Shown: one piece after another, positions 3,480-61,934 of the stretch | Layout: the number at the start of each line of letters is the position of its first letter | How positions within the stretch are numbered: the stretch's first letter is position 1 | From: Clostridia bacterium | Lineage (GTDB): Bacteria > Bacillota > Clostridia > Oscillospirales > CAG-272 | Assembly (NCBI GenBank): GCA_017415485.1 | Contig: JAFQGP010000115.1 | Span: 8,135 to 72,134, forward strand | Direction: 5' to 3' | Length of the DNA stretch: 64,000 nt | Program-made: the position numbers and the translations under genes | The notes under the pieces: model-generated | What the model saw: only the letters and a program-made list of their open reading frames with translations | Database searches by the model: none | What the model was told of the DNA's origin: nothing

Positions 3480-3611
3480 CGATCTTTGTTGCAATGAAAT
3501 CCGCCTTCGGCGGGTGAAATCGCGCGTTGCGCGATGAAATCGAGCTTCGCTCGGTGAAATCTTCGCCTTTGGCGAAGGTTTCGGAAGATTTTCTCGCGGG
3601 GCTCGAAAATC
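3465..3611. repeat. Hairpin-train element H1: 12-bp hairpin over the stop codon plus 4-5 GC hairpins separated by the word [AG]TGAAAT
   Basis: GCAACAAAGATC-TGAC-GATCTTTGTTGC, with the TGA stop in the loop. It is followed by aATGAAAT-ccgccttcggcgg, GTGAAAT-cgcgcgttgcgcg, ATGAAAT-cgagcttcgctcg and GTGAAAT-cttcgcctttggcgaag. Confidence 0.85.
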
Positions 3612-6699: not shown

Positions 6700-8097
6700 A
6701 TGAAGAAATTTTTAGCACTTGCAATCACCGCTGCTATGCTTCTTTCCTTCGCAGTAATCGGTACATCCGCTGCAGAAGTATATGACGGCACAAGCGTATC
6801 CGCTTCCCTTTCCGGCGCGGGAACAGAGGCTGATCCCTATCTTATCGCAAACGGCGCAGACCTTGCATTCTTTGCTGCAAACGCAGTAGCAGGCGCTTCC
6901 TACAAGCTCACCGCTGACATCGTCTGGGCTTCCGCTGCCGAGGCAACCAACTGGACTCCCGTTGAATTCAACGGCACCTTCGACGGAAACGGTCACTCGA
7001 TCTCCGGCCTCTGCGTCAAGGGCGAAAAGAATGCTGCATTCTTCGCAACCGCAGCCGGTGCCATCAAGAACCTTACCATTAAGGATTCCACATTTGAGGG
7101 ATCGAAGTACATCGCCGCTATTGTCGGTCAGGTAGTAGCTGCAGACGCAAAGGAATCCGCTCCTTCTCTCACGATCGAGAACTGTGTAAGCTACGCTACC
7201 CTCATCTCGACCAAGAACAGCTCACTCATCGGCTCTATGATCGGCGACGCTTTCGCTAACGCGAAGACCCCCAACTATCTCACAGTTACAGTTTCGGGTT
7301 GTGTTAACTACGGCACCATCAGCTCCACCACGGACGGCACCGTTTACGTTGGCGGTATCATCGGCCGTACCTACGGTATTCCCGCAATTGTTGAAAACTG
7401 CGCGAACTTCGGCGATCTCAACTCCATTTCCGCTATCACCGGCGGTATCGTCGGCCAGGGCGGTATCAGCGGCGATACCTACGAAGGCTTCTCTACCAAG
7501 ATCAGCAACTGCCTTAACACCGGCAACGCGACCGGCAAGCGTATCTGCGGCGGTATCATCGGCCGTGCATACCCCGGCGTATACGTTGACGGATGTGTAA
7601 ACACCGGCAGCATGACCATCACCGCTACCGATGCGGCTAAGGACGGCTACAACGATCAGCTCGGCCCCATCACCGGCCACGGCCCCGATGCAAGAGCAGA
7701 TGCAGCTACCTTCGTCAACTGCGGTGAGATCACAAACTGCTACAACTCCGCAGAAGCAGTTTTCACCAACTCGAACGATGCAGCAGCCAAGCCCTTCTAC
7801 GCTTCTCTTGCAACCAATAAAACCGCTGCAGAGCTTAACAGCGCCGCTACCGTTACCGCTCTCGGCGACGCTTGGGAGCTCAAGGACGGCGTTCTTACTC
7901 TCAAGATCGTTGCTACCGCAGGCCAGGTTGAATCCGCACAGCCCGAGGTAACAGAACCTGAGGTTACCGAGCCCGCTCCCGAAGACACCAAGCCCGCGGA
8001 TCCCGTTCCCACCGGCGACTCCGCTCTCGTTTTCGCAGTGATCGCAATCATCTCCGTCCTCGGAGTTGCTGCTGTTGCAAAGAGAAGAGAGAATTAA
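6700..8097 (+). CDS. Secreted GLUG-like beta-helix repeat surface protein with a C-terminal PTGDSAL/TM/KRREN sorting signal
   Basis: Signal peptide MKKFLALAITAAMLLSFAVIGTSAAE. Repeats of CxNxG...GGIIG/GGIVG. Ends DPVPTGDSALVFAVIAIISVLGVAAVAKRREN. Confidence 0.85.
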   Translation: MKKFLALAITAAMLLSFAVIGTSAAEVYDGTSVSASLSGAGTEADPYLIANGADLAFFAANAVAGASYKLTADIVWASAAEATNWTPVEFNGTFDGNGHSISGLCVKGEKNAAFFATAAGAIKNLTIKDSTFEGSKYIAAIVGQVVAADAKESAPSLTIENCVSYATLISTKNSSLIGSMIGDAFANAKTPNYLTVTVSGCVNYGTISSTTDGTVYVGGIIGRTYGIPAIVENCANFGDLNSISAITGGIVGQGGISGDTYEGFSTKISNCLNTGNATGKRICGGIIGRAYPGVYVDGCVNTGSMTITATDAAKDGYNDQLGPITGHGPDARADAATFVNCGEITNCYNSAEAVFTNSNDAAAKPFYASLATNKTAAELNSAATVTALGDAWELKDGVLTLKIVATAGQVESAQPEVTEPEVTEPAPEDTKPADPVPTGDSALVFAVIAIISVLGVAAVAKRREN

Positions 8098-8329
8098 GTG
8101 GACAGTGGTTAGTGGACAGTGGACAGAAAGATGCGAATGATAATTTAATTTGTATATTTGCTATCCATTGTACTAACTAATAATTTAATAGAAAAAACTC
8201 GGATATTATGACGCGTTTGCATCAAAATATCCGAGTTTTTCTATCGCTTATCCAAACGAAGTTAACAGTGCACAAAACAAAATTACTTGTCGCAACTTTC
8301 TGTTCACTGTCCACTAACCACTGTTCCCT
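8098..8329. repeat. Palindromic intergenic element E1 (GTGGACA-heptamer arms, AT-rich core with a bidirectional terminator)
   Basis: The left arm GTGGACAGTGGTTAGTGGACAGTGGACAGAAAG (8098-8130) is the reverse complement of 8296-8328 with 2-3 mismatches. The element fills essentially the whole gap between two converging stop codons (8097 and 8332). Confidence 0.9.
8192..8241. terminator. Bidirectional rho-independent terminator inside E1
   Basis: AAAAACTCGGATATT ... AATATCCGAGTTTTT, with an A-tract and a T-tract on the two sides. Confidence 0.75.
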
Positions 8330-10614: not shown

Positions 10615-10657
10615 TTTGCTTTCCTTATTGTATACAAGAAGAATATTTTTCCAAAAA

Positions 10658-11016
10658 GCAAGTGCGAACAAAGCTTTCTGGGTGTCCCCTCATCACCCGC
10701 TGCGGCGGGAGCTTCTCCCAGGAGAAGCCTGGGGAACTGTGAGCTTCGTTTGATATTTCCAATTATTCATTTTTCATTATTCATTTGACCAATTTAGGTT
10801 TATAATGAATAATGAATAATTATTAATTGGCAAGAACACTTTTCTATACAATCGAAACCCAAGTAATATTAATTAACAAATTACATTCATTACTAATAAC
10901 GATAAGCTTCATTTAGATAATTCCAAATGAAGCTAACAGTGACCCCAAGGCTTCTCCTGGGAGAAGCTCCCGCCGCAGCGGGTGATGAGGGGACACCCAG
11001 AAGAATGTGTTAGCAC
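10658..11016. repeat. Long palindromic intergenic element E2 (arms about 95 bp, AT-rich core with a TTATTCA-word inner palindrome)
   Basis: The left arm GCAAGTGCGAACAAAGCTTTCTGGGTGTCCCCTCATCACCCGCTGCGGCGGGAGCTTCTCCCAGGAGAAGCC... recurs as its reverse complement at 10924-11016. The same arm family occurs at 32029 and 34919. Confidence 0.9.
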
Positions 11017-11048
11017 TATCTTTCAAAGAGCTCTAAAACAGATAAATT

Positions 11049-29321: not shown

Positions 29322-29412
29322 ATCAACCTCGCAAAAAATTTCGTTACACTATAATTATAATCTATTTTGCGACGAAATGTAACCCCTAAAAAGGTGGGAA
29401 ACTGGGAAATTA

Positions 29413-29713
29413 GTGGGCAGATCAGAGTGGACAGTGGACAGATCAGAGTGGACAGTGGACAGTGGACAGTGAACAGAAAGATGCGAATGATATTTTTATT
29501 TATCTTTTCTGTTAATTATTAAACAAATAATTTAATATATAAAACTCTCGGATATCTTGAATTCCTTCAAATATCCGAGAGTATTTTTTATTGCTTATTA
29601 CTCTTTAGTATAATACAAAAACTCTATGTTTTGCACAAAATTATTGCAGCAACCCGCATCTTTCTGTCCACTGTCCACTAACCACTGTCCACTCTTATCT
29701 GACCACTGTCCAC
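29413..29713. repeat. Palindromic intergenic element E3 (GTGGACA-heptamer arms, same family as E1)
   Basis: The left arm has (GTGGACA)n interspersed with GATCAGA and ends CAGAAAGATGCGAATGA as in E1. The right arm CTTTCTGTCCACTGTCCACTAACCACTGTCCAC is the exact reverse complement of the E1 left arm. Confidence 0.9.
29541..29589. terminator. Terminator hairpin in the E3 core
   Basis: ACTCTCGGATAT ... ATATCCGAGAGT followed by TTTTTT. It is homologous in position and sequence to the E1 core hairpin, with a TC/GA insertion pair in the stem. Confidence 0.7.
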
Positions 29714-29718
29714 TTTGC

Positions 29719-31984: not shown

Positions 31985-32028
31985 TTTATGTTCCTTTCTT
32001 TTGAGAAAAGTGTATTTTCTATAAAATC

Positions 32029-32423
32029 AGTGCGAACATAGACGCACTCGGTGTCCCCTCATCACCCGCTACGTCAGAACCCCAAAAACGCGCAAGCGCG
32101 TTTCCGGGAACCCGACGGCTGGAGCTTCTCCCAGGAGAAGCCTAAGGAAAGCTGTCGCTTTGAGCTAAATATTTCTCTGTTAGAGAAATGCTAAATTTTC
32201 GCTATGCAAAAGCTAAATACGCGCTTTGCGCGAGCTAAATATTCCGCCAAAGCGGAATGCAAAGGTAGAAATTTGCCAAGGCAAATTTCAATTTCATTTA
32301 ATTAATGATACGAATATTAGACAATACCAAACGAAGCTCACAGTAACCCCAGGCTTCTCCTGGAAGAAGCTCCCTCCGCAGAGGGTGATGAGGGGACACC
32401 CAGAAAGCTTTGTTCGCACTTGC
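32029..32423. repeat. Long palindromic intergenic element E4 (E2 arm family) with a central GCTAAAT hairpin train
   Basis: The arms GGTGTCCCCTCATCACCCGC...GGAGCTTCTCCCAGGAGAAGCC pair with their reverse complement at 32345-32423. The core at 32162-32292 has 5 hairpins separated by GCTAAAT. It is about 90% identical to E6. Confidence 0.9.
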
Positions 32424-32488
32424 TATTCTACTAAAATCGAAAATTTTCGCCTCGGCGAAAATTCACCTTAACTCTGCACTCTGAACTC

Positions 32489-33193
32489 TTAACTCTGCAC
32501 TATCTTTCGGATAATATGTCCCGCCATAATCAACCCTACCGCTCCCGGCACAAACGACAGGCTTCCCGGCGTATTTCTGCCGTTTTCGCTCTCAAGCCCT
32601 TGCGCCTTGATCGGCTCTTCGTCCGACCAGACGACGTCAAGCTTCTTGATACCTTTTTCCTTCATCTTCTTCCGCATAATTTTCGCAAGCGGGCAGACGC
32701 TCGTTTTGCTGATGTCGGATATGCGGAAACGCTCGGGATAAAGCTTGTTCCCCGCGCCCATCGAGGCAATAACGGGAACTCCCGCCGCATCTGCGCGGCA
32801 GATTAGCTCGACCTTTGCCGCGACGGTATCGACCGCGTCGGCAATGAAATCGAACTGCGAGAGGTCGATCTCGTCGGCATTTTCGGGCAGATAAAAGAGA
32901 TTGACGGGATGCACCTTACATTCGGGATTGATCGAAAGAATGCGCTCCGCCATAACCTCGGATTTTGGTCTGCCGACGGTATCCTGTGTCGCAATGATCT
33001 GGCGGTTTACGTTCGAGGTCGAAACCGTGTCGCCGTCAATGACTGTCAGCTCGCCGACCCCCGCGCGTGCCAAAGCCTCGCAAAGATGTCCGCCGACACC
33101 GCCAAGCCCGAAGACCGCAACGTGCGCCGATCTCAATCTGTTCACGCCCTCCTCGCCAAGCAAAGCCCGCGTGCGTGTATCGTCAAGTTGCAT
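32489..33193 (-). CDS. tcdA: tRNA threonylcarbamoyladenosine dehydratase (ThiF/HesA fold)
   Basis: 234 aa. Nucleotide-binding loop VFGLGGVGG, with TcdA/CsdL-like sequence. Confidence 0.85.
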   Translation of the reverse strand: MQLDDTRTRALLGEEGVNRLRSAHVAVFGLGGVGGHLCEALARAGVGELTVIDGDTVSTSNVNRQIIATQDTVGRPKSEVMAERILSINPECKVHPVNLFYLPENADEIDLSQFDFIADAVDTVAAKVELICRADAAGVPVIASMGAGNKLYPERFRISDISKTSVCPLAKIMRKKMKEKGIKKLDVVWSDEEPIKAQGLESENGRNTPGSLSFVPGAVGLIMAGHIIRKIVQS

Positions 33194-34899: not shown

Positions 34900-34918
34900 T
34901 AATTGACTTTATCATTTA

Positions 34919-35285
34919 GCAAGTGCGAACAAAGCTTTCTGGGTGTCCCCTCATCACCCGCTACGTCAGAACCCCAAAAACGCGCAAGCGCGTTTCCGGG
35001 AACCCGACGGCGGGAGCTTCTCCCAGGAGAAGCCTAGGGAGTCTAACGCCTTGAGCTAAATATTTCTCTCTTAGAGAAATGCTAAATTTTTGCTATGCAA
35101 AAGCTAAATTCGCGCTTTGCGCGAGCTAAATATTCCGCTAAAGCGGAATGCAAAGGTAGAAATTTGCCAATGCAAATTTCAATTTAATAAATAATTCGAA
35201 GATTCGAGAATTCCAAACGAAGCTCACAGTAACCCCAGGCTTCTCCTGGGAGAAGCTCCCGCCGCAGCGGGTGATGAGGGGACAC
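34919..35285. repeat. Long palindromic intergenic element E6 (near-copy of E4, same orientation)
   Basis: Same arms as E4, and the same GCTAAAT hairpin train at 35053-35183. Confidence 0.9.
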
Positions 35286-35352
35286 CGTTTGTGCCCAATG
35301 AACACAAGTGAATATTCACTTTAACGATAAAAATTAATCAAGGAGTCCCAAA

Positions 35353-36878: not shown

Positions 36879-37691
36879 ATGACGATCGTTTATATCCTTC
36901 TCGCTCTCATCGCGCTTTCCGCGCTCTACGTTTTCCTTCTCCGTCCCCGTCCCCAGCCCAAGACCTCGGTTGAGCCCCTCAAGGTGGACTATGCCCACCG
37001 CGGACTCCACGGCGACTTTGCCGTTGAAAACACCATGCAGGCTTTCTACGCCGCCGAGCGCGAGGGCTACGGCATCGAGCTTGATGTTCGACTCTCCAAG
37101 GACAACCAAGTTGTCGTTTTCCACGATGACACTCTCCAGCGTATGTGCGACCGCACCGAGCGCGTTGATTCAAAGACAGCTTCCGAGCTTTCTTGGATGG
37201 AGATCAAGGGTACCTACGAGAGAATTCCCCTTTTCGAGGACGTCCTTGCGGGAATCGACCCCACAACACCCCTCTGCATCGAGCTTAAAGGCAACGATCC
37301 CCGCCTTTGCGTTGAGCTTTCAAAGCTCCTTGACAAGGAAGACAGATTCTATTCGGTCAAATCCTTCAACCCGATGCTCATCTCCTGGTATCGCAAAAAC
37401 CGCCCGAGAGTTGTGCGCGGCGTGCTCGTTTCGAACTTCCTCGCGAAGGGACACAAGGGCAACATTTTCACCCGCTTCATCGCAACCACAATGGTACTCA
37501 ACTGCATCGCACAGCCCGACTACATCTCCTATGACTGCCGCCACCCGAAGCTCTTGCCCCTTGTGATCTGCAAGAAGCTTTATAACGTCCTGACATTCAC
37601 CTGGACAGTAAACACCCCCGAGCTTTACGGCGAGGCAAAGGCAAAGGGCGACATCCCGGTTTTTGAAGGCTTCGAGCCCAAGAGATATTGA
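36879..37691 (+). CDS. Membrane-anchored glycerophosphodiester phosphodiesterase
   Basis: N-terminal TM segment. GDPD motifs HRGLHG..ENT, GIELDVRLSKDNQVVVFHD. Confidence 0.8.
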   Translation: MTIVYILLALIALSALYVFLLRPRPQPKTSVEPLKVDYAHRGLHGDFAVENTMQAFYAAEREGYGIELDVRLSKDNQVVVFHDDTLQRMCDRTERVDSKTASELSWMEIKGTYERIPLFEDVLAGIDPTTPLCIELKGNDPRLCVELSKLLDKEDRFYSVKSFNPMLISWYRKNRPRVVRGVLVSNFLAKGHKGNIFTRFIATTMVLNCIAQPDYISYDCRHPKLLPLVICKKLYNVLTFTWTVNTPELYGEAKAKGDIPVFEGFEPKRY

Positions 37692-37692
37692 T

Positions 37693-38532
37693 ATGAGAGA
37701 TAATTACGACATTTTGAAGACCGAGGGCAGAAACCCTCGCACAATGGACATTGATAAGCTTTCCTCACTCGAAATGGTGCGCCTGATAAATCAGGAGAAC
37801 CGAGCCGTTGAGGACGGCATCGATGAGGCACTCCCCGAGATTGCGGCGGCTATTGATATGATAAGCGAAGCCATCGAGGCGGGGGGCCACGTCATTTATA
37901 TCGGCTGCGGCACTTCGGGCAGACTCGGCATCGTCGATGCCTCCGAATGCCCGCCCACCTTTGGCGTTGATTATGATCTTTTCCGCGGCGTTATCGCGGG
38001 CGGCAAGGAAGCCGTTTTCCGCGCGACCGAGAACGCCGAGGACAGCGAGGAAAAGGGTATGGCCGCCATCGAAGCCGACGGCGCGGCCAGAGGCGACGTT
38101 GTAGTCGGACTTTCCGCGTCGGGACGCGCGCCCTTCGTCATCGGCGCACTCAAAAAGGCAAAAGAACTCGGCTGCAAGACGATCTCCGTAACCTGCAACC
38201 CCGGCTCGCTTATGGAAAACTGCGCTGATATTGCCGTTTCGGTTTACGTCGGCCCCGAGGTAATTTCGGGCTCCACAAGACTCAAAGCCGGCACGGCACA
38301 GAAACTGATACTTAATATGTTCTCCACCTGCGCGATGATAAAGACGGGCAAAGTGCGCTCGAACCTCATGGTAAACGTCCGCCCGACCAACGAAAAGCTC
38401 GTTGAACGCGCGACACGCATCATTATGCAACTTTCCGACGCCGACAGAGAGACCGCCGAAAGACTGCTTGCGGAGTACGGCGAGGTGCCCGCGGCGCTGG
38501 ATGCGTATGAAAGTGCAAAAGGCAAAATGTAA
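37693..38532 (+). CDS. murQ: N-acetylmuramic acid 6-phosphate etherase
   Basis: Start at MRDNYDILKTEGRNPRTMDID. SIS domain GCGTSGRLG. The ATG lies 2 nt after the upstream stop. Confidence 0.9.
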   Translation: MRDNYDILKTEGRNPRTMDIDKLSSLEMVRLINQENRAVEDGIDEALPEIAAAIDMISEAIEAGGHVIYIGCGTSGRLGIVDASECPPTFGVDYDLFRGVIAGGKEAVFRATENAEDSEEKGMAAIEADGAARGDVVVGLSASGRAPFVIGALKKAKELGCKTISVTCNPGSLMENCADIAVSVYVGPEVISGSTRLKAGTAQKLILNMFSTCAMIKTGKVRSNLMVNVRPTNEKLVERATRIIMQLSDADRETAERLLAEYGEVPAALDAYESAKGKM

Positions 38533-38844
38533 AATGCAAAATGTAGGTGAATTTTCTCGCTTCGCTCAAAAATTTTCATTTGAATACAAGCAGCTTAAAG
38601 TTTTGATCGAACTTTTTCAAAAGTTCGCAGAGCTCGAGACAGCGTCTCGATTCAATGCAAAAGCTTCAGCTTTTGCCTCCGTGCTTCAAAATGGCGAAGC
38701 TTCGCTTCGACATTTTGGACAGAGTCAATACTTCCCGATTGTAGGGAAGTGCAGCTCTTGCGGTTTTCCGAAGGAAAATGGAGGCGTAAGCCGAGAAGCA
38801 AGAGTTGCAACTTGCCGTAGGCAAGTATTTGCGCTCTGTCACCC
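38521..38844. repeat. Structured repeat H2 (left module, copy A)
   Basis: It begins with (C/T)AAAATG x3 across the murQ stop. Positions 38549-38844 are homologous to 42879-43101, and the module ends GCGCTCTGTCACCC. It carries extra hairpins inserted at 38755-38830. Confidence 0.85.
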
Positions 38845-38904
38845 TTTGCTGAATAAAATTATTTAGCAAATTGGCTTTACATCTCTCTATTTTGGAGAAT
38901 CCCT

Positions 38905-39114
38905 ATGAAAAAGAACCTTATCTGGAACATTATCTTAATAATCGGCATCATCCCTTTCATACTTCCGTTCGCTTTCGGCATATACAAAATTTCGATCGAA
39001 AGCTGGACGATGTTCGATTGGCTCGTTATGTACTCGTACATTTTTTGGCCCACTTATATCGTCGGCGCGGTAGTTATCGCGATTTCGATCATTGGAAGAT
39101 TCATAAAAAAGTGA
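38905..39114 (+). CDS. Small hydrophobic membrane protein (69 aa), the AT-rich cargo of element copy A
   Basis: MKKNLIWNIILIIGIIPFILPFAF..., with 2-3 TM segments. AT-rich codon usage unlike its neighbours. The stop lies inside the first hairpin of H3. Confidence 0.5.
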   Translation: MKKNLIWNIILIIGIIPFILPFAFGIYKISIESWTMFDWLVMYSYIFWPTYIVGAVVIAISIIGRFIKK

Positions 39115-39275
39115 AGGAGCAAAACCTCCCCGCGGGGAGGTTTTACTCCTTCCAAACAGCCTGCGGGGCGCAGTCTGTTTGAAGCGCAAGGGAATTTCGC
39201 CCTCTGCGGAGGGCGACTTAAGGCTCTGCCTTAAGAAACCGCAACCTTTTGAAAAAGGTTGACCAAAACTTTGAT
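39111..39275. repeat. Structured repeat H3 (right module, copy A)
   Basis: GTGAAGGAGCAAAACCTCCCCGCGGGGAGGTTTTACTCCTTC... contains five hairpins and is homologous to 44837-45001 with compensatory stem changes. Confidence 0.9.
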
Positions 39276-39295
39276 CTTTTTTGTTAGTTGGTAAA

Positions 39296-40844: not shown

Positions 40845-40879
40845 AAAATAAGCCGCCGCAAATAGCGGCGGCTTATTTT
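40845..40879 (+). terminator. Terminator/attenuator hairpin immediately after scfA
   Basis: AAAATAAGCCGCCG-caaata-GCGGCGGCTTATTTT. Confidence 0.75.
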
Positions 40880-40880
40880 G

Positions 40881-41090
40881 CGATATAGATCCTTGCGGAT
40901 CTGTGATATACGCAGAGCGTGCGATATACCTTCGGCACGATATGCCCCTTCGGGGCGTGATTTCACGTTCGCCTTCGGCGAACATATCGTATCGCGCTTT
41001 GCACGATATATCGTACTGTTTGCCAAAGGCAAACAGTATATCGTATGAGCATAGCGAATATATCGTGTTTACTAAATAAACGAGGTTAAC
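40881..41090. repeat. Hairpin-train element H4 (word CGATAT / ATATCG, overall palindromic)
   Basis: About 9 GC hairpins (gatccttgcggatc, gccccttcggggc, gttcgccttcggcgaac, actgtttgccaaaggcaaacagt ...). The spacer is (G)CGATAT(A) in the left half and ATATCGT in the right half. The centre is cgtgatttcacg. Confidence 0.85.
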
Positions 41091-41092
41091 CG

Positions 41093-41464
41093 ATGAATAA
41101 TATCACTATACGCGAATTAGCAGTAGAATTGACCGTTGAAATTACGCAAATATGCGATAATATCAAAGGAAGAAGCGTTTTCATAAATCAAATTTTGAGA
41201 TCCTGTTCTTCCATCGGAGCAAATTCCGCAGAAGCCAAATATGCACAAAGTTCCGCAGACTTCATTCACAAATTGGAAATCTCACTCAAAGAATGCTATG
41301 AAACCGATTATTGGCTTGAAATCCTTTATAAAACCAATTCAATGGATAAAGAAACATATATAAGATTGTTAAATAAATGCGGTTCTATTCGCAGAAAGCT
41401 TATTGCCTCCATAACAACGGCAAAAGCAAATTCAGAACAGCAATCCGGAGGTACAACAAAATGA
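41093..41464 (+). CDS. Four-helix-bundle protein (23S rRNA intervening-sequence protein family, PF05635/TIGR02436)
   Basis: 123 aa. Contains ...QILRSCSSIGANSAEAKYAQSSADFIHKLEISLKECYETDYWLEIL. AT-rich. Its stop overlaps the scfB ATG (ATGA). Confidence 0.85.
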   Translation: MNNITIRELAVELTVEITQICDNIKGRSVFINQILRSCSSIGANSAEAKYAQSSADFIHKLEISLKECYETDYWLEILYKTNSMDKETYIRLLNKCGSIRRKLIASITTAKANSEQQSGGTTK

Positions 41465-42843
41465 TCCATTCCTATAAACTTGGCGGTTACAATATCGTCC
41501 TTGACGTCGGCTCGGGCGCGGTGCACGCGGTTGATGATCTTGCCTATGACGTCATAAATCTCTACGAAACCAAGTCGGCAGACGAGATCGTCTCGGTCTG
41601 CCTTGAAAAATTCGCCTCCGAAGGTATCACCGAAGAGGACATCCGCGACACGATCTCCGACGTTGAAGAGCTCAAACAGAGCGGCAAACTTTACGCCGAG
41701 GATATCTATGCGCCCCTCGTCGGCAAGCTCAAGAACAATTCCAACATCGTCAAGGCACTCTGCCTGCACGTCGCGCACACCTGCAACCTCAACTGCGAAT
41801 ACTGCTTCGCGGCACAGGGTCGATTCCACGGCGAACGCGCCCTGATGTCATTTGAGGTCGGCAAGCGCGCGCTTGATTTCCTTGTTGAAAACTCGGGAAC
41901 CCGCCACAATCTTGAAGTCGACTTCTTCGGCGGCGAGCCGCTGATGAACTGGCAGGTCGTCAAGGATCTCGTTGCCTACGCGCGCTCGATCGAGGAAGCC
42001 GCAGGCAAGCATTTCCGCTTCACGCTGACGACAAACGGCGTGCTGATCGACGACGACGTCATTGATTTTGCCAACAAAGAGATGGACAACGTCGTTCTCT
42101 CGCTCGACGGCAGACGCCACGTGCACGACAACCTCCGCAAAACTGTGAACGGTCAGGGCAGCTATGACCTGATCCTTCCGAAGTTCAAGGAATTCGTCAC
42201 CCGCCGCGGCGACAAGGGCTACTATATGCGCGGTACATACACCAAGTTCAACACCGATTTCTGCTCCGACATCATCCACATGGCTGACGAAGGCTTTACC
42301 GAGCTTTCGATGGAGCCCGTAGTCTGCCCTCCCGGCGACCCCTACGCACTCGGCGACGAGGATCTGCCCGTGCTTTACGATCAGTATGAAAAGCTCGCCT
42401 TTGAGATGATGGACCGCAAGAAGCGCGGCAAGCCGATCACCTTCTATCACTATATGCTCGACCTTGAGGGCGGCCCCTGCATCTACAAGAGAATTTCCGG
42501 CTGCGGCTCGGGCACCGAGTATATGGCTGTCACCCCTTGGGGCGACCTTTACCCCTGCCATCAGTTCGTCGGCGACGAAAAATACCTCCTCGGCGACATC
42601 TGGAAGGGCGTAACGAACGACGCCATCCGCGACGAATTCCGCTCCTGCTCGGCATATTCGAGAGAGGAATGCCGCGACTGCTGGGCCAGACTCTACTGCT
42701 CCGGCGGCTGCGCCGCGAACTCCTACCACGCAACCGGAAGCGTAAACGGCGTTTATGAGTACGGATGTAAGCTGTTCAAGAAACGAATCGAGTGCGCGAT
42801 CATGCTGAAGGTCGCGGAATCCCTCGAAAACGAAGAAGAATAA
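41461..42843 (+). CDS. scfB: SCIFF radical SAM/SPASM maturase
   Basis: Start at MIHSYKLGGYNIVLDVGSGAVHAVDD. CNLNCEYC radical-SAM motif and a Cys-rich SPASM C-terminus (CRDCWARLYCSGGCAANS). Confidence 0.92.
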   Translation: MIHSYKLGGYNIVLDVGSGAVHAVDDLAYDVINLYETKSADEIVSVCLEKFASEGITEEDIRDTISDVEELKQSGKLYAEDIYAPLVGKLKNNSNIVKALCLHVAHTCNLNCEYCFAAQGRFHGERALMSFEVGKRALDFLVENSGTRHNLEVDFFGGEPLMNWQVVKDLVAYARSIEEAAGKHFRFTLTTNGVLIDDDVIDFANKEMDNVVLSLDGRRHVHDNLRKTVNGQGSYDLILPKFKEFVTRRGDKGYYMRGTYTKFNTDFCSDIIHMADEGFTELSMEPVVCPPGDPYALGDEDLPVLYDQYEKLAFEMMDRKKRGKPITFYHYMLDLEGGPCIYKRISGCGSGTEYMAVTPWGDLYPCHQFVGDEKYLLGDIWKGVTNDAIRDEFRSCSAYSREECRDCWARLYCSGGCAANSYHATGSVNGVYEYGCKLFKKRIECAIMLKVAESLENEEE

Positions 42844-43101
42844 GTTGCTAGTTGCTAGACGCTAGTTGCTAGTTGAAGGTTAATTTCCGCCCTGATCGGG
42901 CGGAAATTTTCATTCTAATTAAAGAGCAGGAAAGTTTTCGTCCACCTTTTTCAAAAGGTGGCGGAGCACGAGGCAGAGCCTCGGACTAATGCGAAAGCTT
43001 CAGCTTTCGCTTCTGCGCTTCAAAATGACGAAGCTCTGCTTCGGCATTTTGGACAGAGTCAACACTTCCCGAATGTAGGGAAGTGTTGCGCTCTGTCACC
43101 C
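42844..43101. repeat. Structured repeat H5 (left module, copy B)
   Basis: It begins with GTTGCTA-type heptamers x5 directly after the scfB stop, continues with sequence homologous to 38549-38844, and ends GCGCTCTGTCACCC. Confidence 0.9.
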
Positions 43102-43121
43102 CTTATTATTTAATATTCAAA

Positions 43122-43164
43122 GGCACACTTTTCGGTAAAAGCCGATTGGTGTGCCAACTTTTTT
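43122..43164 (+). terminator. Rho-independent terminator (plus-strand T-tail)
   Basis: GGCACAC...GTGTGCC followed by TTTTTT. Confidence 0.65.
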
Positions 43165-43489
43165 ATTCAAGTGAATTCAGATATACTTCAAGCAGTTGCT
43201 TAGCAGTTTCGCGATTCTTCTCAGGGAGTAAATCAACTCGTTCGGCAAGTGTTGCGCCGATTGGCACAATTATCTGATCTTCAACAAAAATATCGTTCGG
43301 AGTAATGCCCAACGCCTCGCATATTCTAAGCACACTCTCGATGCGCATATTAACGCTTCCTCTTTCGATATCAGCGTAAGTGCGATCAGAAAGTCCCGCC
43401 TCCTCCGCAACCTGTGCCTGCGTAAGCCCTTTTTGTTTTCTTATGGCATACAATTTATTTCCTATTTCCATCAAATCAAAAACAAGCAT
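43163..43489 (-). CDS. Small XRE-family HTH repressor-like protein
   Basis: 108 aa. HTH is LYAIRKQKGLTQAQVAEEAGLSDRTYADIERG. AT-rich. It is divergent from a consensus promoter. Confidence 0.8.
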   Translation of the reverse strand: MLVFDLMEIGNKLYAIRKQKGLTQAQVAEEAGLSDRTYADIERGSVNMRIESVLRICEALGITPNDIFVEDQIIVPIGATLAERVDLLPEKNRETAKQLLEVYLNSLE

Positions 43490-43537
43490 CTTAATTCCCC
43501 TTTTTATTATATATAGGAATTATAGCACCATTTTATC

Positions 43538-43566
43538 TTGACAAAAAGGAGTTTCAGTGCTATAAT
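43538..43566 (+). promoter_or_regulatory. Perfect consensus sigma-70 promoter with a flanking inverted repeat (candidate operator)
   Basis: TTGACA (43538-43543), N17, TATAAT (43561-43566). The inverted repeat TTATAGCAC (43519-43527) / GTGCTATAA (43556-43564) overlaps the -10 element. Confidence 0.7.
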
Positions 43567-43608
43567 ATAGGAAGTAAGATTCTTATTTGTTTTCAAGGAG
43601 GTATTACA

Positions 43609-43803
43609 ATGAAAAAATATGTTCTTAATGAATCTACAGGTACGCTACACATTCTCGGTTATTGTACACATTCGACACATAAGTTTGACAATGCAATTAC
43701 ATTCGAAACAGAACAAGAAGCATACAAATTTGCTGGCAAGCATATTAAGCTTTGCAAGCTATGTGAAAGAAAAAAAGAAGCAATCTTAAAAGAACAAAAC
43801 TAA
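43609..43803 (+). CDS. Small Cys/His-containing protein (64 aa), possible zinc-binding
   Basis: AGGAGG RBS. Contains LHILGYCTHSTH ... CKLCERKK. AT-rich. I recognise no family. Confidence 0.5.
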   Translation: MKKYVLNESTGTLHILGYCTHSTHKFDNAITFETEQEAYKFAGKHIKLCKLCERKKEAILKEQN

Positions 43804-43831
43804 TTATGCATTAAAGAAAGGAATATAATCC

Positions 43832-44563
43832 ATGAAAAAATTTATTGCAATATTATTAGCGGTAATTATGTGTTTTTCCCTAGTTTCATGCGGAAAGAAA
43901 GTGGCTTTTGAATTAACACAAAATGCATTTTTTGAGATAAGCAAGTCTGTAGATATTTTGAAGCAGATCAGCAATGACATTATTAGCGCGTGGACGATAG
44001 GTATTTATGATGAATCAACATTAAAACACTATGGTGATGGATTTGATTGGTTATGTGAAAACGTTTCATTATCAAGAGATGATATGCTTGATGGATTAGC
44101 ATATTATAAAAGTCTTGGTATTCAACCCGAATACGTAGAAATTTTATGTGATCCGGAATTAGGATTATATAATGATTATTATGAATACCATAAAGAAGCA
44201 GTACGAAAACTTTATGATATGTATTTCTATACCAGTTATGAGGAAACAGGTATATTAAATGTTTACGATAAAGTGTTCACAGGTTGTGTAATGTTGGTCG
44301 TATACTCTTACGAGGCGAACGGAAAGCTCAGCGAAATCGAACAATCTCTTACATCCGCTGAAACAAAAATCAAAGAATTGAGCAATAAGCATTCAAACTA
44401 TGAGCATTACGAAAACATAAAAGAATATTATTCTACTGCTAGGACTATGTATAATTTCTGCAAATTGCCCACTGGAACATTAGAGCAAGCTAAGAGCAAC
44501 ATAAACGATTATAAAAACACAGCAGATTCGTGTTATAACAGTATGTATTACTTTTTCCAGTAG
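43832..44563 (+). CDS. Lipoprotein of unknown function (243 aa)
   Basis: Lipobox FSLVSCG. AT-rich, helical, Tyr/Glu-rich. Confidence 0.6.
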   Translation: MKKFIAILLAVIMCFSLVSCGKKVAFELTQNAFFEISKSVDILKQISNDIISAWTIGIYDESTLKHYGDGFDWLCENVSLSRDDMLDGLAYYKSLGIQPEYVEILCDPELGLYNDYYEYHKEAVRKLYDMYFYTSYEETGILNVYDKVFTGCVMLVVYSYEANGKLSEIEQSLTSAETKIKELSNKHSNYEHYENIKEYYSTARTMYNFCKLPTGTLEQAKSNINDYKNTADSCYNSMYYFFQ

Positions 44564-44599
44564 ACACTGCAACAAAATTTTCATTCTATGCAGTAAAGT

Positions 44600-44836
44600 T
44601 GACGATATATCAAGAGCCCTCCCGCTTGCGGGAGGGTTGGGAGGGGAGTCAGCGGCGCGCGAAATTTGAGCACCAAAACCAAACTCAAAGCGAAATATAA
44701 TAAAAATGTGAAAATCCGCCGCGGCGGATTTTTCCTTTACGTTCCGCGGTGCGGAACATATCGCATCGCGAAGCGATATATCGTATCCGCAGGATATATC
44801 GCGCCGAAGGCATATCGTGCGCCCTGCGGGCGCAGG
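44600..44836. repeat. Hairpin-train element H6a (ATATCG word)
   Basis: ccctcccgcttgcgggaggg and aaatccgccgcggcggattt, followed by gttccgcggtgcggaac-ATATCGC-atcgcgaagcgat-ATATCGT-atccgcaggat-ATATCGC-gccgaaggc-ATATCGT-gcgccctgcgggcgc. Confidence 0.85.
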
Positions 44837-45001
44837 GTGAAGGAGCAAAAATCTCCCGCAAGGGGAGATTTTACTCCTTCCGAACCGTCGACGGGGCGTC
44901 GCCGGTTCGAAGCACAAGGAAATTTCGCGCTCTGCGGAGCGCGACTTAAGGCTCTGCCTTAAGAAACCGCAAACTTTTGAAAAAGTTTGATCAAAACTTT
45001 T
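44837..45001. repeat. Structured repeat H6b (right module, copy B)
   Basis: Collinear with 39111-39275. Linkers are identical (TTACTCCTTCC, CTTAAGGCTCTGCCTTAAGAAACCGCAA) and the stems differ by paired substitutions. Confidence 0.9.
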
Positions 45002-45024
45002 CCGCTGATATAGTTAAATTGTTC

Positions 45025-55341: not shown

Positions 55342-57057
55342 TCAGTTCGTCTTCTCTCCGTAAACGAGGATCTCGCGGGTATTGATGGTGTTGTATTTGT
55401 TTTCTTCGTCATTTCTGCCGACAATGACGCCAACACGGATATACTGTCCCTCGACACCGCCCATATCAAACAGGCAGGTGACCTTCGAGGTATTGCCGTT
55501 CCAGGGGTCCTTCGGCGAGGTTCCGCAGTTGACAAGATCGGTTCCTGTCACCTGATTCCAGCAAGCCGTAGGCACCTGGGTCCAATTCACTCCGTCATCG
55601 CTGACATAGACAGCAGCAACTCCGGGGAATCCCTCAAGGCTTCCCGAAGCGAATCCCATTGCATCAAACTTGTGCTTCGAGCCGAAATTGAGGGTGATAA
55701 GGCAGGTATAGGGAGAATTTGCATCGACCTCGCCCTTGATGTTATAGGTCTTATCGTCAAAGACGAAGTTTGCCATAAAGGAGTTGCCCCAGTGGCCGTT
55801 GACAAGGTTTTCGACAGCTGTGGTGTAGCCCTTTGCGGAGGAATCCATTTTTTCGATACCTATTACCGAAACACCGTAGCCGATATCGGCAATGTCAGCC
55901 TTCTGCGCGTCGGTAAGTCCCGTGGTCGAATACTCGGTCGATGCGATCGCATTCTTGGTGCCGAGAATACCCGAGAAGCTCTTGCCGTTCGGGTATGTTC
56001 CGCCCTCGAGGACGGAGATGAGCTTCGACTTCGGGAAAGCGGTCAGGTTCTTCATAGCCGAAGCATCGACCGCATAGGTCTTCTCAACGAATTCAACGCC
56101 GACAGACGAGGTCTTGTACTTTTCGGGGATCGCGGGAGTCTCCCAAACAGCCTTGCGAGCCGCTTCTTTGAGAACAGCCGCCGCTTCATCGGTAAGATTT
56201 GCATTGTAATCGACCGTGGTGGGATCGATACCCGTGATCTTTGCAAAGATCGTCATCGCCGCGAGATAGCTTCCCGTAGCGTTGGGGTGGGTCAGGTCGG
56301 AATCATAGAGGTTGATGTTCTTGTTATTGTTATAAACGTCAAAGAAAGCAAGACCCGCATATGCAATGTCGATACCGAGCTCGGCGCCGATAGCCTCGTA
56401 TGCCGCGCTGATCATCCAGGTCATACTCTCGTTGGTCCAGCCGTTTTCCTTGAGAACGCTGTGTCCCTCTTTTCTGCCCCAGGTGCCGTAGAGAATGGGG
56501 GTCGCGCCGTCTGCAATCACCTTTGCGGCAAGGTTGCGCACGCCGGTGTAGAACTTATCGGGGTACAGCGCGGGGCAGGTGCTCTGCTCCTGCAGAACGA
56601 TGTAATCGTAATCGCGGAGCTTAAGCGCGGAGTCAACCTTCGCGCCGACCTCGTCGGTCGACTTTGCGGAATCGATCAGATACCATCCGCCCTTGGTGAT
56701 ACGGGTGACGGTGGCATCATAGCCCGCCGCCTTCAGTATCTTCGCAAAGATCTGCTCGGGCATATCGTTATAATGAGTATAGCTGTTTCCGATAAAGAGG
56801 AAATTGTATTTCTTGCTCTTGTCGAGGACCGTGGTTTCGGGCTCGGCGGTGGTCTCGGGAGCGGGCTCGGTCGCCTCGGTCTCGGGAGCGGGCTCGGTCG
56901 CCTCGGTCTCGGGAGCGGCAGTGGTTACTTCAATTTCGGGTGCTTTGGTGGTTTCCTCGGGGGCTGTGGTGACTTCACCTTCGCCCGTGCAGGCAACACC
57001 CGCAAAAAGCATTGAGAAAAGCAAAAGCATTGCGATCAATCTCTTTTTCATTGTCAT
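55342..57057 (-). CDS. Lipoprotein with a DUF4886 (SGNH-like) domain and a C-terminal discoidin-like domain
   Basis: Lipobox FAGVACT. T/E/P-rich linker with the EATEPAPET repeat. FLFIGNSYTHYNDMP is DUF4886-like. Confidence 0.6.
   Translation of the reverse strand: MTMKKRLIAMLLLFSMLFAGVACTGEGEVTTAPEETTKAPEIEVTTAAPETEATEPAPETEATEPAPETTAEPETTVLDKSKKYNFLFIGNSYTHYNDMPEQIFAKILKAAGYDATVTRITKGGWYLIDSAKSTDEVGAKVDSALKLRDYDYIVLQEQSTCPALYPDKFYTGVRNLAAKVIADGATPILYGTWGRKEGHSVLKENGWTNESMTWMISAAYEAIGAELGIDIAYAGLAFFDVYNNNKNINLYDSDLTHPNATGSYLAAMTIFAKITGIDPTTVDYNANLTDEAAAVLKEAARKAVWETPAIPEKYKTSSVGVEFVEKTYAVDASAMKNLTAFPKSKLISVLEGGTYPNGKSFSGILGTKNAIASTEYSTTGLTDAQKADIADIGYGVSVIGIEKMDSSAKGYTTAVENLVNGHWGNSFMANFVFDDKTYNIKGEVDANSPYTCLITLNFGSKHKFDAMGFASGSLEGFPGVAAVYVSDDGVNWTQVPTACWNQVTGTDLVNCGTSPKDPWNGNTSKVTCLFDMGGVEGQYIRVGVIVGRNDEENKYNTINTREILVYGEKTN
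56851..56918. repeat. 27-nt tandem repeat (2.5 copies) encoding the linker of the lipoprotein
   Basis: GGTCTCGGGAGCGGGCTCGGTCGCCTC x2 plus a partial copy; on the minus strand it encodes (EATEPAPET)n. Confidence 0.9.
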
Positions 57058-58352: not shown

Positions 58353-59987
58353 TCAGTTTTCTCTTCTCTTTGCAACAACTGCAACTCCGCAAAGGGAGAT
58401 AACAGCAACAACAGCGAAGATGAGAGCGGAGTCGCCGGTGGGAACGGGATCTGCAGGAACTTCGGGCTCGGTGATAACGGGATCAAGCTTGCCCTCGGGA
58501 TCCGAGATAATGAGTCCCTTGTAGATGTTGATATCCTTGTACTCTGCAACAAGGCTCTTGTTGTGGAGGTAGAAGCCTACACAAACCTGGAAACCGGACT
58601 CGTGAGGATAAGGAGTGCCATCGGTAGCCTTGGTGGTGTTGGTCATATCGATAACGTTGTAGGAGATCCACTTGCCTTCGGTGTTGAGGTAGTAAATGGT
58701 AGCCTGGTAACCGTGCATCTCAACGCGGAAGGTTGCGTAACCGTCTGCATCGTGGCCGAGGTCTTCAACAGGAACATACTCCTTGCCGGGAGTGTTGATG
58801 TTTGTGATCTTGGTGGAACCGTGCTCGGTTGCGAAGGAACCGGTCTGGAAGTTACCGTAGATATTGAAGGAGTTGTTGAAGGGATGGAGGGTAGGAACTG
58901 CGAAGCAGAAACCGGTGTTCTTTGCGCCGGTCTTTACCTTCCACTCAGTGGTGTATCTGGTCTCGGAGTTGATCTCAAGGCCTTCAACGATAGAACCGTA
59001 GTATGTACCCTTTTCTGCGGAGCCGTCCTGCTCGATCTTGATGTAGTCCTTATCAGCGGGATCAAGAGTGATGTTGAACTTTTCGCCGTTAGCAGCAAGG
59101 AAACGTGCGGAGAAGCCGGTATCCTTTCTCGAGAAATCGGGGGTAAAGAGAATGTCGCCGGTCTTAGCCTTATCGTAACCGGTTACGGAAGCACCCTCAA
59201 CGTAGTAGTCGGGGTAAGTGGGGTTCTTAACGGTGTTGCCTTCGTAAACAACAGCATCCTTGATGGTGATAGCTGCGCCCGGGTTGTAGAGGTATGCGGA
59301 GAGACCGAAGTTGGGAGCAACCTCAAGAAGACCGGTGTTGAATGCATCATACTCGTCGATGTATACGTTGTTGATGAATACCTTAACGTTTGCACCGGTA
59401 ACTACGAAATCGATGTCAACGAAGCCCTCAGCGTCAACTGCGGAGAGGTACTTTGCGTCGGTAACGTAAGCATCGCCATAGAAAATGGAACCGATGGACT
59501 TACCGCCTGCACCGTAGCTCATTACGTGACGGATGTTGGGACAACCGTAGTAGCCAACAAGAGATTTGTAACCAAGGTCAAGAAGATACTGAGCCTCGGT
59601 GTTGGTGGGCATGTTGATGAACACACCTGCGTTGCCGGAAGCGAGCTTACCGTCGGTATCGGTGTAAGCAACTGCCATCTTCATAGAGAAGGTGTAGTTC
59701 TTGCCCTCGCCGTAGGTGAGACCCTTGATTGCGCCGCCCCAGAATGCACGGCCTGCAGCAGTACCTGCATAGGTAACGGTTGCGGACTTGCCGTCATCGG
59801 AAACGGTTGTTGCGAGAGTTCCGTCGCCCTTGAGGAGACAGAAATCTGCGGGAGCGTACTTGTCGTCGCCCTTGAAGTTGACTTCATAGAGAACGTCGCC
59901 TTCCTTAGCGGAAGCGGTGATTCCCATAGCAGCAACAAGCGCGAGGATCATTGTGAGAGAAAGAATTGCGCTGAGGATCTTTTTCAT
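58353..59987 (-). CDS. Secreted surface protein (beta-sandwich/lectin-like, function unknown) with a PTGDSAL/TM/KRREN sorting signal
   Basis: Signal peptide MKKILSAILSLTMILALVAAMGITASA. Ends DPVPTGDSALIFAVVAVISLCGVAVVAKRREN. It is a paralogue of the next gene. Confidence 0.8.
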   Translation of the reverse strand: MKKILSAILSLTMILALVAAMGITASAKEGDVLYEVNFKGDDKYAPADFCLLKGDGTLATTVSDDGKSATVTYAGTAAGRAFWGGAIKGLTYGEGKNYTFSMKMAVAYTDTDGKLASGNAGVFINMPTNTEAQYLLDLGYKSLVGYYGCPNIRHVMSYGAGGKSIGSIFYGDAYVTDAKYLSAVDAEGFVDIDFVVTGANVKVFINNVYIDEYDAFNTGLLEVAPNFGLSAYLYNPGAAITIKDAVVYEGNTVKNPTYPDYYVEGASVTGYDKAKTGDILFTPDFSRKDTGFSARFLAANGEKFNITLDPADKDYIKIEQDGSAEKGTYYGSIVEGLEINSETRYTTEWKVKTGAKNTGFCFAVPTLHPFNNSFNIYGNFQTGSFATEHGSTKITNINTPGKEYVPVEDLGHDADGYATFRVEMHGYQATIYYLNTEGKWISYNVIDMTNTTKATDGTPYPHESGFQVCVGFYLHNKSLVAEYKDINIYKGLIISDPEGKLDPVITEPEVPADPVPTGDSALIFAVVAVISLCGVAVVAKRREN

Positions 59988-61855: not shown

Positions 61856-61905
61856 AATTTTCTTTCCTTTCAAAAATTTCGGCTTTGCCGAATTGATACA
61901 TAATA

Positions 61906-61934
61906 ATGATACCACTTTTGTGCGAATTTGTCAA
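61906..61934 (-). promoter_or_regulatory. Promoter of 60137-61855 (followed by a conserved leader hairpin at 61878-61892)
   Basis: On the minus strand: TTGACA, N17, TATCAT. The leader is TGTATCAATTCGGcaaagCCGAAA. Confidence 0.55.

Follow-up and report, generated by a model that had tools for sequence, protein, structure and literature searches.

Why do words of one and the same length, seven nucleotides, recur in tandem beside ordinary genes of a gut bacterium? The question was raised by a 64,000-nt stretch of DNA, hereafter the window, from an uncultured gut member of the Clostridia (GTDB Oscillospirales, CAG-272; GenBank assembly GCA_017415485.1, contig JAFQGP010000115.1, positions 8,135 to 72,134), in which the stop codon of the scfB gene runs directly into five tandem heptads. 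The original prediction, made from the letters alone, held that every element family of the window uses a locus-specific 7-nt word in a register common to otherwise unrelated sequences, and that a shared generating or recognising machinery stands behind it, such as a register of polymerase slippage or a protein whose contacts recur every 7 bp. We find that the tandem 7-nt arrays are real and non-random, and that those built from the word AGTGGAC form, as inverted arms, the two ends of a dispersed element whose gene-bearing relatives enclose a four-helix-bundle gene of the S23p family (PF05635). To the account developed below, in which the tandem arrays of the window derive from arms of such cassettes and the words between hairpins are, separately, linkers of Gut-1-type RNAs, we assign a probability of about 0.55.

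The genes of the window are ordinary chromosomal ones, and its intergenic DNA (~7.3 kb) is dense in repeat families. The scfB protein is 99% identical to that of a metagenome-assembled genome labelled Eubacteriales, 95% identical to that of a yak-colon metagenome-assembled genome (L002; loci used for comparison carry L numbers throughout) and ~70% identical to those of Oscillospiraceae, Acutalibacteraceae and Ruminococcus genomes.

Tandem arrays with a 7-nt unit

A direct check of the window located all of the predicted sequences at or near their predicted positions. Using Tandem Repeats Finder (TRF), we detected 8 period-7 arrays of at least 2.5 copies, compared with 0.31 expected from 300 dinucleotide-preserving shuffles of the window (shuffle maximum, 3), and 7 arrays of at least 3 copies, compared with 0.08 expected. 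All 8 arrays are intergenic or extend across a stop codon, and no intergenic array of period 4–6 or 8–11 was found in the window. The array at the 3' end of a ThiF-family gene, on the minus strand, had escaped the original prediction. The non-coding DNA of 78 related loci (137 kb) contained 15 period-7 arrays of at least 3 copies, along with 1, 1, 4, 8, 1 and 3 arrays of periods 5, 6, 8, 9, 10 and 11, respectively; a period-12 peak in the same DNA was rejected as the unmasked scfA (SCIFF peptide) gene.

The predicted pervasive register was not borne out. Autocorrelation of the intergenic DNA yielded only a weak lag-7 signal (z = 2.4), which is carried by discrete arrays and fell to z = −0.4 after masking of nine of them (~330 nt), so there is no general 7-nt register; lags 18–22 remained elevated after masking because of the hairpin arrays described below. 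The claim that every family uses a 7-nt word is likewise overstated, the hairpin-spacer words being a separate matter and the unit being 8 nt in some lineages. Nor are the words locus-specific: they belong to families, with AGTGGAC occurring on four arms at two window loci and on 14 metagenome contigs, GCTAAAT at two window loci, ATATCG/GCGATAT also upstream of homologous genes in other genomes, and TAGTTGC in the sister species L002, whose (TAGTTGN)4 array lies at a locus that has no array in the window. The words AGTGCAG and TTGCTAG also form arrays on unrelated GC-rich viral contigs. In relatives farther removed, (AATGCAG)n arrays (L061, 14938–14970 and 19493–19523; L080, 109–140 and 3727–3755) lie in another dispersed element, with the flanks ggagtttgycgatgta and gggtctgcgacgcgattataaaa...aatgtaggggcg.

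Single-linkage clustering of the heptamer words was uninformative, chaining all of them together. The pattern A[AG]TG occurs in 11 of 34 consensus units, from heptamer arrays of the window and of loci L002–L080, compared with 3.1 expected by letter permutation (z about 5); this pattern was chosen after inspection of the data, and an ARTG core was set aside as an explanation and is kept here as an unexplained observation.

Inverted heptad arms around four-helix-bundle genes

The AGTGGAC arrays belong to a dispersed element of ~230–300 bp, family A, present in the window as two gene-less copies (Table 1). From the left, its layout is (AGTGRNY)n, AGAAAGATGCG, ~50 nt, a bidirectional terminator (CTCGGATATT...AATATCCGAG), another ~50 nt, CGCATCTTTCT and (RNYCACT)n, with arms that are 75–90% complementary. 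Copy 1 sits between convergent genes and, taken as a single RNA, folds into an uninterrupted 31-bp stem (z = −14); in copy 2 the arms are 90% complementary, and the right one stops 4 nt from the stop codon of a GH109-family gene. An exact 22-mer spanning the junction between array and core recovered 14 metagenome contigs with differing gene contexts. Across 28 arms (range 2–9 units), 18 share the four-unit layout x, AGTGGTT, AGTGGAC, AGTGGAC, and wherever an arm could be scored (18 cases) its array starts between −9 and +7 nt from the stop of a long open reading frame (ORF). Five assemblies have four units in the left arm, whereas L098 has six.

An ORF that terminates exactly at a family A arm belongs to a paralogous set without Pfam match (window 1–1287 and 6700–8097; 58353–59987 and 60137–61915 on the minus strand), the members of which share ~35-nt internal repeats and a conserved 3' end of 100–125 nt (inverted repeats I1, I2 and I15). 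A promoter role for the family A arm was considered and dropped, since only weak 9-of-12 matches overlapping the last GTGGACA unit were found.

What the arms can enclose is seen at L116, where a PF05635/PF22296 four-helix-bundle gene takes the place held in the window copies by the terminator, and the left-arm AGAAAGATGCGAGGAAG provides its ribosome-binding site. A complete copy thus reads ~4–5 direct heptads, AGAAAGATGCGAGGA (the Shine–Dalgarno sequence), the PF05635 gene and the same heptads inverted. Cassettes with close homologues of this gene occur at three other loci (L129–131, L132–133 and L134; Table 1), and at L134 the arms share the variant words AGTGATC/AGTGGTC on both sides. From this shared layout the two family A copies of the window are securely identified as gene-less relatives of the cassette.

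More distant homologues (38–66% identity) on viral contigs display the same design with other words, namely AGTGGGT/AGTGATC, AGTTGCC, ATAGGGT, ATTGGGA, TGAACGT, TGGCTGT and GTAGTCT, as well as the 8-mer TAAGGAAC and one 11–12-mer; AGTTGCC, from L139, is close to the word at scfB. The design is also found on plasmids of cultured bacteria, including Anabaena sp. 90 (TGACAGG), Nostoc PCC 7120, Stanieria, Geminocystis, Calothrix and Riemerella, and with 8-mer units in Gemmatirosa and Picosynechococcus. To quantify it, TRF was run on 170 nt on each side of 24 PF05635 genes from Clostridia, cyanobacteria, Bacteroidota, Gemmatimonadota and viral contigs. Among the 48 flanks, 29 carry an array of period 7, 2 of period 14, 1 of period 21, 6 of period 8 and 1 of period 11, with a median of 4.3 copies; of the 652 flanks downstream of ordinary long ORFs that served as a control, 12 have a period-7 array. 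In 10 of 11 loci, reverse-complementing the downstream word gives the upstream one with at most one mismatch, the mean for cross-locus pairs being 3.05 mismatches, and at all 24 loci the four-helix-bundle gene is the sole gene between the arms.

The cassette anatomy recurs in distant bacteria, each lineage with words of its own and a 7-nt unit in about two thirds of the flanks. Within this sample it is well supported that PF05635 genes of this type are bracketed by inverted, lineage-specific arrays, mostly of 7-nt units. The reverse statement, that heptad arrays imply a nearby four-helix-bundle gene, is not supported. In three IMG/VR contigs (L135–L137) the cassette interrupts a large ORF (...AVGCMFGRYSLD..GLAxAGG, cassette, ..DNVIPIxDDEYFxDDIV...), and on Anabaena and Picosynechococcus plasmids (L157, L163) cassettes lie between cas6 and cas4 or between cas10 and cmr3; at these loci they behave like intervening sequences within defence loci.

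Solo arrays, hairpin linkers and rival explanations

Three further arrays of the window, at scfB, murQ and the ThiF-family gene, stand alone. Each consists of exactly five heptads in an AGT register, after which come G(G)T[GT]AATTT and a terminator hairpin, so that the sequences concerned are not the unrelated ones they had been taken for. The junction motif [AT]AGGT[GTA]AA[AT]TT has three intergenic matches in the window, all at the ends of solo arrays, and three at the orthologous sites of L002, against a background of 17 matches in 1.19 Mb of other loci. We infer that these arrays are one-armed derivatives or relatives of the cassette, because of their five-unit length, their AGT-type words, the Shine–Dalgarno-like AAGG(T)G that follows the array and the word AGTTGCC of L139. 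That AAGG(T)G may be a vestigial ribosome-binding site.

Array length changes by whole units, 7 or 14 nt at a time. At scfB, where the array begins on the last base of the TAA stop (42841–42843), the unit number is constant in 7 strains, with three substitutions in L090, and in L002 the array is shortened to ATTGCCA GTTACTA ATTGAAGG, ~2 units compared with 4.7. Five strains lack both array and terminator, their scfB protein being identical or nearly so; in these, the end of another repeat element, of the B type described below, abuts the stop codon in their place. The murQ array behaves as a variable-number tandem repeat (VNTR), with 4 versus 7 units among strains and a drifting word: the window and L081 have four TGCAAAA-type units and a terminal unit, L083 and L084 four of TGAAAAG/TGGAAAG, L088 seven units and L002 four of TGCAAAG/TGCAGAG. 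The murQ stop codon falls inside the third of the five units, and because the array spans it, the C-terminus of MurQ (window 37663–38532; strain loci L081–L088) and its annotated length (259–281 aa) vary by strain. At the ThiF 3' end, AATGATAAT plus hairpin, repeated three times, replaces in L002 the five heptads of the window, and in both versions AAGGTGAATTT and a terminator follow; one slot can thus be filled either by a hairpin array or by tandem heptads.

The words between hairpins had been predicted to follow the same heptad rule, but they form a separate phenomenon. They are linkers of multi-hairpin RNAs of the Gut-1 type, and their length of ~7 nt is approximate. Gut-1 is a described RNA motif (Rfam RF01706; Weinberg et al. 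2010, PMC2864571), the Rfam consensus of which has a conserved GUGAAAU made up of two closing pairs and a three-base linker. A full-length member, with hairpins joined by GUGAAAU, lies in the 3' region of a gene of the window and is followed by a terminator. The GCTAAAT and ATATCG arrays differ from it in falling outside any Rfam family, and one class of them leads a four-helix-bundle gene; no Rfam match was obtained for the GCTAAAT arrays, for the array at 44758 or for those of L002, L115 and L117–128, and 40878–40968 gave a Gut-1 match of 40.7 bits, below the threshold. Word spacings of 20, 22–26 and 16–30 nt are not multiples of 7, and since they span 16–30 nt the hairpin arrays are outside any 7-nt register; related arrays have 9-nt words (AATGATTAT in L002, CGTACTGTC in L016).

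The window has a four-helix-bundle gene of its own, between scfA and scfB, belonging to a second subfamily. The hairpin array that precedes it runs up to its Shine–Dalgarno sequence, and the two linker words of that array are mutually reverse-complementary, so that complementary words of the ATATCG class could pair. The design of this leader, four GCGATAT words and then four ATATCGC words with variable hairpins between them, ending at the ribosome-binding site, also precedes homologues in L117–126, L127 and L128. Comparison of L083, L088, L089 and L001 showed that the gene and its ~210-nt hairpin leader are found in some strains and missing from others that have an identical scfB protein. The gene has 2920 close homologues, mostly on contigs shorter than 2 kb, which suggests a multi-copy dispersed gene.

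Several observations weigh against the derivation of the solo arrays from cassette arms. These arrays lack a partner arm as well as a four-helix-bundle gene, and are assigned to the cassette by anatomy alone; the window's own four-helix-bundle gene has a hairpin-array leader, not tandem heptads. None of 28 viral-contig arrays of (TTGCTAG)n or (AGTGCAG)n lies near a four-helix-bundle ORF, as detected with a profile of one subfamily, and the loci of relatives (1.19 Mb, 80 scfB loci) contain period-7 arrays and no four-helix-bundle gene. The 24 cassette loci, which were reached through their homology to a single subfamily, do not amount to a random census; in some lineages the unit is 8 or 11 nt, and 9 of the 48 flanks have no array at the TRF threshold chosen. 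Neither a target-site duplication nor a mobility mechanism was identified.

Several of these points are what one would expect if the solo arrays were purely generic heptanucleotide microsatellites, arising wherever selection permits because replication slippage favours 7-nt units, and unrelated to cassettes. This is a serious rival, which we regard as quite possible. It accommodates the 7- and 14-nt steps in copy number between strains, the preference for period 7 in relatives' non-coding DNA without a four-helix-bundle gene, the solo arrays with the same words on unrelated viral contigs and the general over-representation of heptamers in the literature, as reported in PMC4679880 and PMC4692102. 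It leaves unexplained, however, the co-varying inverted arms around one gene family across phyla, the position-specific four-unit layout of the family A arms and the five-unit length and AAGGT junction common to the three window arrays, and the constancy of the scfB array in 7 strains does not favour it either.

It is rather unlikely that the elements are MITEs (miniature transposable elements with inverted repeats), with heptads as subterminal sites for a transposase encoded elsewhere and the four-helix-bundle gene as a passenger. The inverted terminal arms, the many dispersed copies of family A in many contexts, the insertion polymorphism between strains and species and the coexistence of gene-less and gene-bearing versions, reminiscent of a MITE and its parent, would fit. 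Yet neither the window nor any full-length copy has a transposase, the four-helix-bundle protein is all that the parent-like copies encode, no target-site duplication was recognised, and a sole cargo gene that is the same at 24 of 24 loci in several phyla is unlike random cargo. An origin of the words as target-site duplications was rejected as well: the empty and filled sites of elements E2, B1 and B2 in L002 show no clear duplication, and family A offers no clean empty site for such a comparison. In the scfA–scfB spacer the words resemble native sequence, which is suggestive but not decisive.

We likewise hold it improbable that the heptads are cis-acting RNA elements of 3' untranslated regions, bound by a host single-stranded-RNA-binding protein (for example, a cold-shock-domain protein covering ~7 nt) that tunes termination or mRNA decay. 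All three solo arrays are on the sense strand between stop codon and terminator, the slot also used by Gut-1 and other hairpin arrays, and cold-shock, S1 and CsrA proteins have been proposed as readers of another heptamer repeat, TAACTGA (PMC4679880); words that differ by locus and drift between strains are nevertheless awkward for a single host protein, and the five strains without scfB array and terminator retain an identical or nearly identical scfB protein. Finally, that the 7-mers were merely picked out of AT-rich intergenic DNA, as the partly arbitrary word boundaries in hairpin arrays and the weak global lag-7 autocorrelation, lost on masking, might suggest, is refuted for the tandem arrays by the claim-blind TRF search of the window and its shuffles, which found no other short intergenic period, and is extremely improbable overall.

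Apart from these, the window contains other repeat families (Table 1). Family E2 has three copies (10654–11023, 32026–32427 and 34917–35286) with inverted arms of ~80 nt (GGTGTCCCCTCATCACCCGC...); their cargo varies, copy 1 having a pair of heptamer mini-arms and copies 2 and 3 each a GCTAAAT hairpin array with a terminator, and copy 3 is absent from the NUDIX–MFS spacer of L002. Family B (38570–39277 and 42904–45006) has inverted AAAGTTTTGATCGAACTTTTTCAAAAGTTCGC-type ends, both copies are absent in L002, and the larger one encodes an XRE-type helix-turn-helix gene and ORFs without Pfam match. A perfect 52-nt inverted repeat (33933–33984/34106–34157, 121 nt between the halves) overlaps the annotated 5' end of an M24 peptidase ORF and has a similar sequence at 3300–3330 of L002, and a perfect 27-nt tandem repeat of 2.5 copies (56851–56918; TRF score 136) lies inside a minus-strand ORF (55342–57057). 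No rRNA was found in the window.

Table 1. Heptad arrays, cassettes, hairpin arrays and the four-helix-bundle gene, with coordinates in the window where applicable
Feature	Coordinates	Strand	Description
Family A copy 1, gene-less	8097..8329		Four-heptad left arm + AGAAAGATGCG, central bidirectional terminator, inverted right arm; AGTGGAC arrays 8097-8126 and, inverted, 8291-8329
Family A copy 2, gene-less	29412..29714		Left arm of 9 units, central terminator, right arm of 7 units; AGTGGAC arrays 29412-29476 and, inverted, 29664-29714
Cassettes of close homologues, L129-131			Between def and fmt
Cassettes of close homologues, L132-133			Upstream of cotJA
Cassette of close homologue, L134			Between fmt and Zn-peptidase gene
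scfB solo array	42843..42877	+	AGTTGCT AGTTGCT AGACGCT AGTTGCT AGTTGAA; five heptads
scfB junction AAGGTTAATTT, then intrinsic terminator hairpin	42876..42908	+	Terminator scan, fold, junction motif
murQ solo array	38512..38546	+	AGTGCAA AAGGCAA AATGTAA AATGCAA AATGTAG; then GTGAATTTTC and hairpin
ThiF-family gene solo array	32467..32501	-	AGTGCAG AGTTAAG AGTTCAG AGTGCAG AGTTAAG; spans stop
ThiF array junction AAGGTGAATTT + terminator hairpin	32441..32469	-	Terminator scan, junction motif
TRF period-7 arrays	8097-8126; 10762-10785; 10802-10820; 29426-29476; 29664-29714; 32470-32501; 38510-38543; 42843-42875		
Inverted heptamer pair	10762..10820		ATTATTC x3.4 (10762-10785), ATAATGA x2.7 (10802-10820); centre of E2 copy 1
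Gut-1 RNA	3492..3565	+	Four hairpins joined by (G/A)UGAAAU; RF01706, 75.6 bits (gathering threshold 50)
Array of ~nine hairpins	40878..41092	+	Linkers [GA][CT]GATAT in first half, ATATCGT in second half; fold z = -9.6
Four-helix-bundle gene, PF05635 (S23p/Avd-like)	41093..41464	+	Between scfA and scfB, strain-variable
GCTAAAT + hairpin x4 array	32162..32245	+	In E2 copy 2; ends in GCAAAGGTAGAAATTT + terminator
GCTAAAT + hairpin x4 array	35053..35135	+	In E2 copy 3; 92% identical to 32162 copy
ATATCG[CT] + hairpin x4 array	44758..44815	+	Near B2 right end; ends in GGGTGAAGGAG + hairpin

Known systems and a putative reader of the heptads

The over-representation of heptanucleotide repeats has been known since 1990, when the cyanobacterial short tandemly repeated repetitive (STRR) sequences were described, and from a genome-wide survey of 2007. 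In that survey, by Mrazek, Guo & Shah as summarised in PMC4679880 and PMC4692102, long simple sequence repeats of heptanucleotides were over-represented in prokaryotes and polymerase slippage was put forward. The slippage part of the original prediction is therefore a rediscovery, although the whole-unit changes it implies are indeed seen. The arrays here resemble those heptamers, as far as the summaries describe them, in being tandem, intergenic, beyond chance and variable among close relatives, and they have both hallmarks of long simple sequence repeats and VNTRs, unit repetition beyond composition and changes by whole units; they differ in that the repeats of the survey were, according to the same summaries, treated as generic, whereas here the inverted arms of a cassette are built from one word family. 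The predicted common machinery holds in part: one cassette system stands behind the GTGGACA arrays and the steps between strains are of 7 or 14 nt, but not all families belong to it.

Lineage-specific intergenic heptamers are also on record as the STRR sequences of Calothrix, Anabaena and Nostoc and as GGGAATC of Xanthomonas, the latter with 70–75 convergent inverted pairs per genome (PMC4692102). Such pairs have the same anatomy as family A, and plasmid four-helix-bundle genes of Anabaena, Nostoc, Calothrix and Stanieria are flanked by STRR-like heptamers; these repeats have, however, been interpreted as G-quadruplex-forming or as of unknown function. Within Nostoc heptamer arrays, Elhai and colleagues reportedly described small dispersed repeats in 2008. 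TAACTGA direct repeats, found in Beggiatoaceae, cyanobacteria and Bacteroidetes and suspected to have a repeat-binding protein (PMC4679880), are similar in that 2–6 heptamer copies abut start or stop codons and one word occurs in distant phyla, but they lie mostly upstream of starts and have not been described as inverted pairs around a gene.

The closest known system is the intervening sequence of 23S rRNA, present in Leptospira and Coxiella with an S23p ORF and, in Coxiella, a 28-bp terminal stem cut by RNase III; that the ORF has a role in mobility is an old suspicion that was never confirmed, and the Xanthomonas S23p protein is a homopentamer (PMC4990558). Common to both systems are a PF05635 ORF inside terminal inverted repeats, a long stem, of 28 bp in Coxiella and a predicted 31 bp here, and a sporadic, selfish-looking distribution; the ORF is present between the repeats at L116, L129–134 and 18 further loci, and absent from the family A copies of the window and from its solo arrays. 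The elements described here differ in lying after stop codons, between genes, including cas genes, or within a large ORF, and none was found in helix 25 or 45 of a 23S rRNA; their arms are tandem heptads, and they have gene-less and probably also one-armed derivatives. We know of no mobility mechanism for the 23S rRNA intervening sequences, and of no function for the huge S23p/four-helix-bundle family outside diversity-generating retroelements. The anatomy of these cassettes looks like a new variation on the S23p intervening sequence, the heptamer bias itself being already known; no paper linking heptamer repeats to S23p or four-helix-bundle genes was found in a literature collection that is incomplete.

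How such arms might work can be sketched by analogy. When both lie on one transcript, folding predictions indicate that they would pair into a stem of at least 30 bp, which may be likened to the RNase III-excised intervening sequence of 23S rRNA; unit numbers may change by slipped-strand mispairing or unequal exchange. Oligomers that read short tandem repeats have precedents in the omega repressor of pSM19035, which reads 7-bp heptad operators, and the TRAP ring, which binds 11 GAG repeats in RNA, each with one unit per subunit. Although the repeats here are contiguous, neither a TRAP gene nor a ribbon-helix-helix gene accompanies them; a search of 30 ORFs of the window against Pfam, the neighbours of the arrays among them, detected neither a heptad-binding ribbon-helix-helix protein nor a transposase. 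The candidate reader by analogy would be a pentameric four-helix bundle, speculatively contacting one heptad per protomer in a TRAP-like manner. The four-helix-bundle proteins match PDB entries 2GSC and 2RLD, both deposited with five chains, and the array sizes (a median of 4.3 TRF copies; five units in the window solo arrays) are suggestive only. A bolder version, which we consider doubtful, would make PF05635 pentamers sequence-specific readers of arrays of about five heptads, with RNA or DNA wrapping around the ring and the specificity co-evolving with the word, and would make cassettes and their derivatives a major source of the bacterial heptamer excess.

The arrays have practical consequences, as they disrupt metagenome assemblies, many homologues lying on contigs of less than 2 kb, alter the C-termini of genes such as murQ, and deliver or replace terminators. 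If heptad arrays are cassette arms, three old puzzles, the heptamer excess, the function of PF05635 and the mobility of the 23S rRNA intervening sequences, would merge into one testable problem. Were the reader hypothesis true, it would provide a first function for the S23p/standalone-Avd family and would account for the cyanobacterial STRR sequences, the Xanthomonas GGGAATC repeats and the arrays of the window alike.

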